In this document: positions 4,986 through 8,806 of the stretch, in pieces
How the letters are laid out: each line of letters begins with the position of its first letter
Position numbering within the stretch: position 1 is the stretch's first letter
Source: an uncultured Bacillota bacterium
GTDB taxonomy: Bacteria > Bacillota > DTU025 > MWDF01
Length of the DNA: 64,000 bases
Assembly: GCA_963823655.1 (NCBI GenBank)
Contig: CAWGMK010000007.1
Coordinates: 225,908 to 289,907, forward strand
Reading direction: 5' to 3'
The notes under the pieces: model-generated
What the model was told of the DNA's origin: nothing
Seen by the model: only the letters and a program-made list of their open reading frames with translations
Databases searched by the model: none
Translations under genes and position numbers: made by a program

Positions 4986-6474
4986 ATGAAATCGAGATTT
5001 CTGGTCTGCATTTTAGCGCTTCGCCTTAGTTATGGGCCTCGCTTCCTTCGCATCCGCGATCGAACCTGCTTCGATAAGCGGGCCTGCCCACTTCGGGGTG
5101 AAACACTACCAAAACGATTATTTCGTTTTCACAATTAGCATACCCGACGACCTGCGCGCGATCGCAGAAAGCTCCGCTTCAAAAATCCCCCTGAAGATCC
5201 AGATAGACTACAAGATGGGGAATGGGGAGTGGCACCATACAAGCGAATGGGATACGGCCCAGTTCGGCATGTCAAACGCAATGGGTGTCAACTACATCAA
5301 GGACGAGACTTACATCTCTCAGGACAGGGCAAGCCTTTCAAATATGTTTAAGGCCGATGCCACTGCTCTTCAAGGGGTGAAGAATTCGGGTTGGGATTTC
5401 CCGGCGGAAAGGCTTTCATTCAGGGTGCGGTTTGTAGCAACGCTGGATGGGTATAAAACTTACACATATTCTGACTGGTCCGAGACTTTTATATACGCAA
5501 AAGACGTGGTTTCGAACCCTGATGAGCTGATAAAATACGCGCCAACCTTGACCACGGCCACGGTAGAGAAGAACACCGCCGGGATGCCCTTCCTCAGGGT
5601 AATGACCGACAGGATACCCGGGCCGGTGCAGGATCTAAACGCCATGACGGGGACCGGTGTGAACATGGAGGTATGGATGAGAAGGGCGGGCGAGAAGGAC
5701 TTCAAGCTGATCCACTCATCATACCTTTATGAGTTCATCCTTATCGGCGTAGATGACTACTTCGACAAAACCAAGCAGAACTACGAAGAGGAAGGCTATG
5801 AGATAAAGATCCGCTATGTTCTGAACGATCTGAGGAAATACCCTCAGGCCGGCCGCTCTGACATAATATACAGCCCGTTCTCGAACATATATTCACAGAA
5901 CATGCCGGCATGGAGCGGGGCTTCGAAGTGGGCGACCACAGAGCTGACTGAAGCTGATCAGCTTGGGCTCATCCCTGAAATCCTGAAGGGCGCGGACATG
6001 ACGAAGCCCATCACAAGGGAGGAGTTCGCAGAGCTTGCCGTGCTGCTTTACGAGAAGACTACAGGCCTGGCAAGCACCCCTATGGAGCCCAACCCATTCA
6101 TCGATACGGTGAATCCGCAGGTGCTTAAAGCTGCCAACCTCGGGATAACCAAGGGCACCTCACCTACGGAATTCTCGCCCGATGTGCTCATTAACCGCGA
6201 GCAATGCGCCACTATGCTGTTCAGGGCGCTCAAGGCTATGAAGCCCGAGGGCGATTACAGCATAGAAGGGGTCAAGGACTTCGCCGACCAGCTTGATATA
6301 TCGGGCTTCGCAGTCGAAGCCACTAAGTACATGTCCAAGATAGGCATAATACTGGGAGATGTGCAGGGCAGATTTATGCCTAAGGCAACGACAACGGCCC
6401 AGAAGGCATCGGGTTATGGAATGGCGACAAGGGAACAGGCGATAGCGATGTCGCTGAGATCCTACAAGAAGTAG
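4986..6474 (+). CDS. S-layer homology (SLH) domain surface protein; frameshift in signal peptide (~5020)
   Basis: Three C-terminal SLH-like repeats (ITREEFA, INREQCA, ATREQA). AAGGAGG RBS then ATG 4986 (MKSRFLVCILA), which joins the 5032 ORF after removing one base. Confidence 0.85.
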
Positions 6475-6492
6475 CCTATAAGGAATAAAATC

Positions 6493-6534
6493 AAGGTCCT
6501 CCTGTTAGCGGTCATCGCTTGCAGGGGGACCTTT
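6493..6534. terminator. terminator hairpin between convergent genes
   Basis: AAGGTCCTCCTG...CAGGGGGACCTT inverted repeat. Confidence 0.7.
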
Positions 6535-6540
6535 ACCTTG

Positions 6541-7611
6541 CTAATCGAGCCTGAGCTTCATTATCCCGTCCGGGCCGCAAAGGTAGGTGAAGCCTCCCTT
6601 GAAGATCAAGCGAGCCTCTTTCAAACCCCCGGCTATTGCGTAGAAAGCGGCGATCTTCAAATCGCTGTCCAGCGCAAGGATGCCATTGTGAACCGGGACC
6701 AAATAGCGCGAACCATCGAATACGGGCCTGCCTACGACTTTGACTGGCGAGGTGATGCTCCTTATTACCTTTCCGTCCTCCGTATCCAATGAAGTAATCA
6801 GGCTGCCTTCATCTTCAATTAACAATGCCATACCCGCAGGGCCGGGACATACGTATTCGGGATGATTGCCTTTAATACCCCATTCGTAGACGTATTTATC
6901 TCTTGTGTTCCAGAGAACGGTGCCGTAGAAATCGGCGACTACAAGGATTTTGTCTTCGCTTATCGGCTCGATGAGCCTGATATCGAAAGGCTCTACCGCC
7001 TTGAATTGGCCAACCGGATCCCCGTTTCTGATGTCGAACATATTGAAGATGTCTATCCCGTCGCCTACGTCCGGCCGGAAATAGAATCTTTCAAAGACCA
7101 CTATGCATTTATGATTTCCGAGGTTTACAAGGGACCAGGCCGGCCCCGTGAATGTGACGAATCAGCAATCTTCAGGAGCCTGATATTCCCAAGACAGGTC
7201 CCCTTCCTCGTCAAGTGCGAAAAGTCCGTGCTCCCAGCCGACATAGGCGTTGCCTTCAATGACGGCAAGCGCCGTAATGTCCCCGAACGACTCGAACTCC
7301 CAAATAGCCTCGCCGTCTTTGCCCAGCTTGACCAGCTTTTCTCCCGACGCCGCAAAAAGCGCTCCGTCCGAATCGGCAGCAAGATACTTCACTTCATCCT
7401 GCGCCGCCATTCCCATCTAATGCTTCCGTCATCGTTGAGCACGACGACGCGATTCCCAGCAGCAAGGGCAGGGTTTCCTCCCGGAAGCACAAGGAAAGGC
7501 CCGACGTCCTCAAAAGGGGCGGACCACTGAACATAACCGCTGCATGCGGCATAACCCGAGAAACATAAGAGCATGATAAGTTAGAAAGACAAATAACCAT
7601 CGTCTGTCCAT
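6541..7611 (-). CDS. exported PQQ-like beta-propeller protein; two frameshifts (~7580, ~7410) and one in-frame TGA (7162-7164, possible selenocysteine)
   Basis: Repeated 'L..DG...WE' blade motifs (NDDGSIRWEW, KDGEAIWEF, EEGDLSWEY, TEDGKVIRS). GAGGA RBS before ATG 7611. ORFs 7162-7416 and 6541-7101 are in the same frame, separated only by TGA. Confidence 0.7.
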
Positions 7612-7789
7612 GTTGTCCTCCAAGCACGTAAAGCCTCTTGAATATATAATAGTTCATGAATATAAACAAATGCCAACCGACCGGACCCATGCCCCTCAGA
7701 GTCCTAAAAAGGCCGCCATGAGGCCGATATCGGGCATATGGTGTAAAATTATCATATCCGTCAGAGCTTCAAGAATCGGAGGGATGCCT

Positions 7790-8806
7790 TTGCCAGAAAT
7801 CAAGGACAGTTCCGACAAGAAAAGGATCGCGGCAGCCTTGGAATTTCCGGGCTTTATGCGCTTCAAAGCTCTTCATGAGGGGCTTGCAGACTGCAGCATT
7901 TACGCAAGCTCTGCAAAAGATCCCATCTACGCTGCGCGTTTCAACTACAAGCTCTTTATTCAGCCGCCGTCCGGCAGGCGGGATGCGAGAACTGCAAAAG
8001 ACGCGGTGGACTTCATCGAATATGAGATCAGGTCCAAGCGAGGGACGGACTTCGACATCATGAGCATTTTCTGCCCCGATATAGCTTTCCTGAGGCTCAT
8101 GAAGGACGCATTAGGCCAGCAACAGCCAGCTTTCGAGTGGCGCGACCGCTACTCATTGAAGTCGGAGGAGCCTTATACCGACGCCCCCGTACCGATCGGC
8201 TATGAGCTGAGGGAAGTAAGCCAAGGGCTATTGGACGAAGGGCTGGGCAATACTGAGGAACTGAAGCAGGAGATGTGCTCCGAAAGGCCCTCTGTAGACG
8301 ATTTCCTGGCCAAAGGTTTCGGGATATGCGCTGTCAAAGGGCGCGAGCTTGCCGGCTGGTGCCTGTCCGAATACAACTGCTCGGCAGGTTGCGAGATAGG
8401 AATCGAAGTTCGCAACGAGCACAGGCATAAGGGCCTGGCTCTGGCCATGACATCTGCATTGATAAAGCTTGCACGCTCAAGAGGGTATGCGAAAATCGGC
8501 TGGGACTGCCACAGGCAGAACGCAGCGTCCTGGCATACCGCGATAAAAGCAGGCCTTTCAATAAGAGCGACATATCCCACTATATTCATCTGCAAGGACA
8601 AGGCGATGCAATACGGCGCCAACGGCAACATCGCCCTAAGAGACGGAGACGGGGATGCCGCCCTCGAGTGGTTCAGGAAGTCGGCCGCGACTGGCAAAGC
8701 CCCGTTCTGGGTATTCATAAATATGGCCCAGATACAGGCGCTTACCGGTGATATAAGGCTGGTCATGGAGGCATATGAAGGCTTGAAGACCGCCAGGATG
8801 GAATAA
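7790..8806 (+). CDS. GNAT family N-acetyltransferase with C-terminal TPR-like helices
   Basis: EIGIEV..EHRHKGLA and WDC...NAAS..TA.K.G GNAT motifs. C-terminal GN.....GD...A..WF TPR-like segment. GGAGG RBS before TTG 7790. Confidence 0.85.
   Translation: MPEIKDSSDKKRIAAALEFPGFMRFKALHEGLADCSIYASSAKDPIYAARFNYKLFIQPPSGRRDARTAKDAVDFIEYEIRSKRGTDFDIMSIFCPDIAFLRLMKDALGQQQPAFEWRDRYSLKSEEPYTDAPVPIGYELREVSQGLLDEGLGNTEELKQEMCSERPSVDDFLAKGFGICAVKGRELAGWCLSEYNCSAGCEIGIEVRNEHRHKGLALAMTSALIKLARSRGYAKIGWDCHRQNAASWHTAIKAGLSIRATYPTIFICKDKAMQYGANGNIALRDGDGDAALEWFRKSAATGKAPFWVFINMAQIQALTGDIRLVMEAYEGLKTARME

Follow-up and report, generated by a model that had tools for sequence, protein, structure and literature searches.

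Prokaryotic selenoproteins have been grouped into 119 families and subfamilies; according to the article text of this catalogue (PMC13188914), most of those characterised share a thioredoxin-like fold and almost all were discovered by way of pairs of cysteine (Cys) and selenocysteine (Sec, one-letter code U) forms. The prototype of the bacterial selenoprotein gene is fdhF of Escherichia coli, in which an in-frame UGA is followed, inside the open reading frame (ORF) and at a prescribed distance, by a close GC-rich stem-loop, the selenocysteine insertion sequence (SECIS), with an early G and then a U in its loop. Genomes with such genes carry selA, selB, selC and selD. Here we describe a gene of the same plan on a 64,000-nucleotide stretch of DNA, called the window below, from an uncultured Bacillota bacterium (DTU025; MWDF01; GenBank assembly GCA_963823655.1, contig CAWGMK010000007.1, positions 225,908 to 289,907 of the forward strand), whose genome likewise holds the four sel genes. 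The gene occupies positions 6541..7611 of the minus strand and is one C-U clade copy of a family of exported beta-propeller proteins restricted to the window's genus. Comparison of the family members, together with a structure model, makes it highly probable that the conserved UGA of these genes is read as Sec through canonical recoding, with a covarying hairpin behind the codon and a single predicted domain on both sides of it.

The family departs from fdhF: its protein is unrelated to formate dehydrogenase, and its hairpin is a bare 6-bp stem whose G-P-V-R/W-S codons specify a conserved beta-strand. Its structural relatives are BamB and the PQQ_2 (pyrroloquinoline quinone repeat, PF13360) proteins and the designed propellers Cake, Tako, Scone and Bagel, a group whose fold is matched over the full length at TM (template-modelling) scores of about 0.7-0.8. 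The 40-residue 'PQQ-like' repeats behind the designed proteins match the N-terminal three blades of the family strongly. Unlike BamB and the PQQ-repeat proteins among the matches listed, however, the family possesses the C-U loop and a C-terminal half of its own, and Sec is unknown in the PQQ-propeller fold in the article text of PMC13188914.

In the spacing of Sec and Cys the family resembles two groups in Table 1 of the same catalogue: the C-U selenoproteins (the SaoL MerB-like lyase, HgcA, MbdU, the CopZ-like 2Fe-2S protein and KCU-star) and the C-x-x-U thiol oxidoreductases. It differs from both in having an entirely different fold, to which none of their NCBIfam models matches, and the catalogued C-U and C-x-x-U families have Cys-containing homologues whereas none was found for the propeller family.

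Features of the gene in the window

The gene begins with an ATG at 7609..7611, and the sequence reads a ribosome-binding site (RBS), GGAGG, at 7617..7621, 5 nt before the start codon; all positions given for the gene are on the minus strand. The predicted product opens with MDRRWLFVFL..., which has the n- and h-regions typical of a signal peptide, and the N-termini of homologues begin MRKQVIIIALAALILLSCF... and similar. The sequence ends in a TAG at 6541..6543. In the assembly it lies in three frame pieces, separated by a first break at 7578..7582, where there is one surplus base compared with related strains, and a second at 7406..7407, where one base is missing compared with a related strain. 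A hidden Markov model (HMM) of the family accordingly matches the gene in two different frames, one covering profile positions 68-358 and the other positions 14-71.

Downstream of both breaks the frame reads ...WEYQAPEDC, with the Cys codon TGC at 7165..7167 (column C149, invariant in the family), followed directly by the in-frame TGA at 7162..7164, also a conserved column, and then by FVTFTGPAWSLVNLG... The frame behind the TGA stays open for 206 codons up to the TAG, where a first-pass annotation of the window had put the open stretch at about 200. A spacer of 14 nt (7148-7161) leads to the hairpin at 7131..7147, composed of GGGGCC (7142-7147), the loop GGCCT (7137-7141) and GGTCCC (7131-7136), so that the loop starts 20 nt past the TGA, at the distance which that annotation had named. 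This 6-bp stem with its 5-nt loop GGCCU encodes G-P-A-W-S in the predicted innermost strand of blade 4. Propeller sequence had also been claimed for both sides of the TGA, and the Pfam search agrees: the read-through product scores 32.9 bits against PQQ_2 (cut-off 27.6), and the two sides scored alone give weaker matches below the cut-off, at 19.7 and 16.3 bits.

Conservation of the TGA codon

Homologues were sought in the window's own genome and 60 relatives, and matches were obtained only in the window's genus, namely in all six congeners and in the own genome. They comprise 30 match rows in seven genomes, of which 25 contain exactly one TGA, one contains two and four contain none; the four without TGA are short and do not reach across the column. 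The motif was read in 25 loci, 22 at first and three later (one further locus, G004:C10, was flagged as having one TGA and its motif was left unread). In every one of the 25 loci, which cover the own genome and the six congeners, a C-U or C-x-x-U pair is followed by ..GP[VA][RW].. The Cys-Sec form is PEDC-U-FPT..GPV[RW]S, and the Cys-x-x-Sec forms are EECDT-U, TGCDT-U, YDC[AS]T-U and EECDF-U. Both the Cys and the TGA columns are invariant in an alignment of 17 rows whose identity to the first row falls to about 23%. Metagenome contigs from other samples were scanned with a DNA pattern that permits either TGA or TGG, and all five loci found have TGA. The family proteins measure about 345-375 residues, with a predicted N-terminal signal peptide and the one conserved in-frame UGA.

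These data bear on the possibility that the TGA is an ordinary nonsense mutation in a dead propeller gene. The window copy does have two frame breaks, and several of its sister copies in the own genome are broken too. A nonsense lesion, however, would be expected to be private to one copy, and here TGA occurs in every homologue read, down to 22-25% identity and with similarity on both sides, in a column that is never TAA or TAG. Nor does any homologue read at the DNA level carry TGG, CGA or GGA, the codons for Trp, Arg or Gly that would have spoken for an ordinary residue at this position. Comparison of nine pairs of close homologues gives ratios of nonsynonymous to synonymous substitution (dN/dS) of 0.00-0.16 for the first 40 codons past the TGA and 0.08-0.21 for the 100 codons before it, which indicates strong purifying selection on the codons behind the TGA in the same frame. 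At the family level the nonsense explanation is refuted, and we give it a negligible probability; the first-pass annotation, too, had argued that an in-frame stop does not fit the other lesions of the window, which are single-base indels.

Elsewhere in these genomes TGA is an ordinary stop of the standard code, because it terminates 9 of the 21 printed family frames (TAG ends 8 and TAA 4) and because rpoB and rpoC are free of internal stops. Only the internal codon is fixed as TGA.

Another explanation takes the TGA as a true stop and the two halves as separate proteins, a split propeller with a restart. Gene callers do annotate two adjacent ORFs at these loci, and split propellers are able to assemble in principle. 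Yet neither a conserved start codon nor an RBS lies behind the TGA, in keeping with the first-pass reading of the window, and the database gene calls start at differing, arbitrary places (MGPVW.., MPKAPGPV.., VEYAGPV.., MRPGPV..). The codons immediately after the TGA (FPT or IP.) are conserved and under selection, the internal stop is TGA throughout although the terminal stops differ from gene to gene, a separate signal peptide is lacking in the C-terminal half, and in the structure model blade 4 and the closure of the ring would require both halves. We regard a split propeller as highly unlikely, and a single read-through product remains the preferred interpretation of the family.

The SECIS-type hairpin

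The hairpin was compared in 22 sequences that align without gaps. Its six stem pairs are kept in 131 of 132 cells, with covariation: the outer pair 30-46 is GC in 12 sequences, AU in 4, UA in 3, GU in 2 and UU in 1, and pair 33-43 is GU in 15, AU in 6 and GC in 1. The observed covariation score was reached by none of 500 shuffles, and sliding the partner strand by one column lowers the pairing to 61-73%.

Amino-acid conservation is a confounder here, since the stem overlaps the conserved codons G-P-V-R/W-S. It is answered by the synonymous sites, which are biased in the stem and free in the loop. The stem Gly codon is GGR in all 22 sequences, whereas GGR accounts for 44% of the 788 Gly codons elsewhere in these genes, and GGG and GGA are the sole Gly codons able to pair with the opposite U. 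The Ser codon is TCC in 19 of 19 cases, whereas TCC accounts for 18% of the 484 remaining Ser codons. In the loop Pro codon the third position varies freely (T in 11, G in 9, C in 2).

The bacterial SECIS (bSECIS) model, as given in the legend to Fig. 2 of PMC13188914, calls for a loop of 3-9 nt, a stem of 4-16 bp, a G in the first two loop positions, a distance of 16-37 nt from the UGA and a minimum free energy (MFE) of -7.5 kcal/mol or lower. All 22 sequences lie within the model so described, with a 5-nt loop NGUNN, a 6-bp stem, G as the second loop base and a distance of 20 nt, and the MFE of the 45 nt past the UGA ranges from -10.4 to -19.4 kcal/mol. The third loop base is U in 21 of the 22 and C in the window copy alone.

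Run over 159,841 bases, a covariance model of the hairpin finds a single site in each family locus, including three loci that were outside the model. On the 64-kb window it finds the reported site only, and it finds nothing at the selD locus. Rfam, searched over positions 6400-7800 with E up to 10, yields no family, only a chance match to a long non-coding RNA. Outside the seven family loci of the own genome the pattern TGA-N15-GGRCC.G...GGYYC has a single match, at G000:C13:311126 (+); a stop follows four codons on, the family HMM does not match there and the site is probably a chance occurrence.

Selenocysteine machinery and other selenoproteins

The own genome has a sel cluster on its contig C6 with a tRNA-SeC (anticodon TCA), selD, selA and selB, so that a search for the selenocysteine genes, proposed in the first-pass annotation as a check, finds the whole set. 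SelA matches with 414 bits, and selD itself has one in-frame TGA. Across the genus, SelB scores above its curated cut-off in all seven genomes, and in the six congeners its gene is one uninterrupted frame. With this machinery, SelB and Sec-tRNA(Sec) would dock on the hairpin while the ribosome stands on the UGA, and Sec would be inserted; the full-length protein would then be exported by the Sec protein-export translocon and fold outside the cytoplasm.

SelD is the only other, and the only classical, selenoprotein seen in the own genome. Sec-type FdhA was not found in it, and neither were GrdA and GrdB, for which the searches matched no control genome either, so these two blanks are weak. Because no GrdA, GrdB or Sec-type FdhA was found, the propeller family may be a main user of the Sec machinery in this genome. 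A de novo scan of the genome for a TGA that has open flanks and is followed by a hairpin within the model returned 157 candidates, most of them GC-rich noise. The majority of the strongest GC-rich hairpins of that scan cluster at G000:C10:14000-110000, C6:1-10000 and C6:385000-397000, which points to stretches of raised G+C that may be islands or contamination; the contamination rating of the genome is 3.77%.

Predicted fold and position of the Cys-Sec pair

The AlphaFold2 model of a full-length member has a mean predicted local distance difference test score (pLDDT) of 90.1 and a predicted TM-score (pTM) of 0.85. Behind a low-confidence N-terminal helix at residues 2-16, the signal peptide, it shows 31 strands from residue 27 to residue 356. 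Foldseek aligns the full-length model with Tako8 (TM 0.72-0.81), Cake8 (0.69/0.77) and BamB (about 0.70 over 360-379 columns). The halves on either side of the TGA are thus modelled as one eight-bladed propeller, a ring of four-stranded blades. Pfam PQQ_2 matches four of five members above the cut-off of 27.6 (L011 33.5, L018 42.1, L022 29.1 and L023 35.3), and L024 lies just under it at 25.9.

The C-U pair (residues 149-150) is placed by the model in a loop at 144-153, between a strand at 139-143 (...LLWEY) and a long strand at 154-165. In the register of the 40-residue repeat this loop leaves blade 3 at its outer strand and enters blade 4 at its innermost strand, and the hairpin codons encode part of the latter strand. 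Loops of this type border the central channel in propeller enzymes. By analogy, the C-U loop would border the central channel of the family propeller. Apart from structural Gly, Trp and Pro, Cys and Sec are the sole invariant residues of the alignment.

Two known identities were considered and rejected. As a PQQ-dependent dehydrogenase the family has only a marginal match in the PDB, to ADH-IIG (E 3.1e-5, with no stretch passing alone), and no Pfam quinoprotein family. As a BamB orthologue (TIGR03300 / NF008351) it reaches at most 34.8 bits where the cut-off is 285.2, and four of five members have no match.

Paralogue clades differ in their Cys-Sec spacing, and each sits at its own syntenic position across species; in the neighbourhoods of 17 loci, synteny is conserved within each clade. 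The family tree comprises 22 rows, G001_C36 not being among them. Around these 17 loci no shared neighbour was found, nor any thioredoxin, Dsb or cytochrome partner. In the EECDT-U clade, a conserved exported protein of about 330 residues without a Pfam family lies downstream on the same strand in all four species (L051:8643-9701, L070:4371-5552, L071:6064-7161 and L072:2752-3813; about 20 nt later in L051) and is a possible partner of that clade. Another clade lies beside a small lipoprotein with no Pfam match.

As for function, C-x-x-U marks thiol oxidoreductases, and C-U occurs in SaoL, HgcA, MbdU and CopZ-like metal or organometal proteins (PMC13188914, Table 1). For this reason we favour a selenenylsulfide redox site or a soft-metal/chalcogen site outside the cytoplasm. 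The C-U or C-x-x-U pair in the loop from blade 3 to blade 4 would most likely form either a reversible selenenylsulfide or a thiolate/selenolate pair that binds soft metals, and would act on an extracytoplasmic substrate. Redox chemistry has about an even chance of being the role of the pair; binding of a metal(loid) or of sulfur species is possible and clearly less likely, and other roles are less likely again.

Databases and literature

A profile search of 1.84 billion representative sequences returned 27,336 matches. Among the best 150 of these, 130 are long multi-repeat proteins (655-7,935 residues) matched in the N-terminal repeat region only, 7 are N-terminal fragments of 149-152 residues and 12 are C-terminal fragments. 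All seven N-terminal fragments stop at ...C or ...CDT. The MerB-like family is reported to be likewise truncated at its C-U in databases (bioRxiv 10.1101/2022.07.06.499078). In NCBI records the halves appear as adjacent entries named 'hypothetical protein [Bacillota bacterium]', and the record of one half is named for 'Firmicutes bacterium ADurb.Bin153', an unclassified Bacillota. A further homologue search with the family alignment at shorter lengths returned only two N-terminal fragments.

No NCBIfam model matches the family. The words propeller, PQQ, WD40 and repeat are absent from the article text of PMC13188914 with its 119 families, where BamB occurs only within an author name; the article text of the deep-Sep paper and of the Haft 2022 preprint mentions no such protein. 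The supplementary tables of these works may list it. A full-text literature search found no paper on a PQQ-propeller protein with a UGA-encoded selenocysteine. The first-pass annotation had not recognised this fold among the described selenoprotein families, and the catalogue's article text bears it out. Judged from these sequence comparisons, the selenoprotein family is new and uncatalogued, with an unusual fold, predicted export and an apparent lack of Cys homologues. Among RNA sequencing runs, none was found that contains the stretch, and no run covers more than 0.19 of its sampled words.

Observations that weigh against selenocysteine

Several observations count against the assignment of Sec, and they are set out together here. 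The assignment draws on sequence comparison and predicted structure. Thermodynamically, the window hairpin is unexceptional: a 48-nt segment starting at the TGA has a folding energy of -13.9 kcal/mol (z = -0.18), and 76 of 200 shuffled sequences do equally well. Hairpins of six homologues have z from -1.01 to +0.53, none of them exceptional, and in two of the six the single-sequence MFE fold is a different structure. The significance of the hairpin is thus comparative only. Of the SECIS-like element proposed in the first-pass annotation, the part that stands is a hairpin conserved and covarying across the family; the window sequence taken by itself folds no better than chance.

Two full-length database proteins, P0006 and its cluster mate P0154, have W at the TGA column (PEDCWFPTLTGPVRS). 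They raise the possibility that a variant code or near-cognate read-through places Trp, Gly or Cys at the TGA instead of Sec. Their source is JGI/IMG contigs of 1,839 and 1,176 bases. Their DNA was not found in the contig collection scanned, so that a real TGG is possible, and a wider search of metagenome contigs with P0006 gave 59 pattern matches and no relative. Gene callers run in anonymous mode may select genetic code 4, in which TGA is Trp, on short contigs. A code-4 model picked by the caller is probably the origin of the W in both proteins, contigs of 1.2-1.8 kb being consistent with this behaviour. The use of TGA as terminal stop in 9 of the 21 family frames and its absence inside rpoB and rpoC speak against a variant code, while the complete Sec machinery in all seven genomes and a hairpin with SelB-type features speak for Sec. 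A non-Sec residue at the UGA is, in our judgement, very unlikely.

No Cys form of the family has been recovered. There is no Cys homologue at the UGA column in the 61 related genomes. There is none in 401 genomes across the phylum, searched with a profile of the motif and C-terminal half, which matched the genus and gave one weak partial match off the motif. Insensitive word-based searches of 5.8 billion clusters found none, and neither did re-scoring of the best 150 of the 27,336 profile matches with a C-terminal profile. All known selenoproteins are reported to have a Cys-containing homologue. The missing Cys form is a weakness, since such a homologue is a standard criterion for a selenoprotein, and it is also the most unusual feature of the family if it holds.

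Damage in the own genome belongs here as well. Its selB (G000:C6:102231-104116, L039) lies in two frames, with a one-base deletion near 102950 (...GQRAAL | NVSGANKDEIERG...). Breaks affect five of its seven family loci, at about ten lesions per 7.5 kb of family sequence. At three near-invariant columns only the window copy deviates from the family (V158A, G173F and T201P), and V158A results from the U-to-C change in the loop, seen in 1 of the 22 hairpin sequences.

Status of the window copy

The frame of the window copy moves off at 7578-7582 and returns at 7406/7407, both within the first 70 codons and upstream of the TGA; the first-pass annotation was silent on these two breaks. Contigs of a related strain are about 93% identical to the gene region, with 81 differences and 5 gaps over 6610-7750. 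At the first break the contig from run X1 has one base fewer at 7578 and that from run X4 one fewer at 7581, and dropping one base there joins MDRRWLFVFL to LIMLLCFSGYAACSG. At the second, an additional base that the X1 contig carries behind 7406 connects ...GSIRWEW with AQDEVKYLAAD. The related strains are thus intact at exactly the two break sites, and each base change restores the frame.

Whether the window copy is a decaying pseudogene of a real family or an intact gene with assembly errors is evenly balanced. Decay is favoured by the density of breaks, two in 1.07 kb against roughly three per ~22 kb in essential genes of the same assembly, by the changes unique to this copy at three near-invariant columns, including the loop U, and by the five of seven own-genome loci that are broken where no family locus of a congener is. 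Assembly error is favoured by the intact related strains and by a window hairpin that still satisfies the SECIS model. It is favoured further by the state of the assembly: selB, valS, another aminoacyl-tRNA synthetase gene and aroA are all split. The assembly carries scattered single-base indel errors, because valS (G000:C6:207594-210159), the second synthetase gene (G000:C13:226474-229189) and aroA (L054:4602-5782) are each divided into two open frames in the 13-contig assembly while rpoB and rpoC are intact. ORF lengths on seven own-genome contigs show a mild shortening compared with a congener. The TGA and hairpin are ancestral in the gene, whether this copy decayed or was misassembled.

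Genes beside the propeller gene

A GNAT acetyltransferase gene (PF12746, E 2.5e-20, residues 153-324) lies head-to-head with the propeller gene at 7610-8806 (+); the long ORF is listed from 7610 and its true start is probably further downstream. On the other side, a 480-residue ORF at 5032-6474 (+) has no Pfam match at E 1e-5, and its C-terminal third looks by eye like a cell-wall-binding (SLH-like) repeat.

Implications

An exported beta-propeller family without a detectable Cys homologue escapes pipelines based on Cys/Sec pairs, and the deep-Sep authors themselves state that such pipelines miss families of this kind. Each of the six congeners searched has 2-4 family loci, so that every one of these anaerobic-digester genomes is misannotated at 2-4 places, where the public records examined split one gene into two 'hypothetical proteins'. 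The family is also a clear case, found in nature, of 17 bases that serve at once as an RNA signal and as the code for a protein strand.

With this family, the known settings of Sec would come to include a propeller scaffold outside the cytoplasm. We tentatively suggest, as a possibility that is less likely than the recoding itself by a wide measure, that the genus keeps its Sec machinery largely for this lineage-born, Sec-only family of exported eight-bladed propellers. If so, the family would be the first propeller-fold selenoenzyme and the first selenoprotein family without a Cys-containing counterpart anywhere. Through a vicinal Cys-Sec (or C-x-x-U) pair at the propeller mouth it would act on an external substrate such as polysulfide or S0, a soft metal(loid) or a peroxide, and its SECIS would have arisen from codons for the innermost beta-strand in blade 4.

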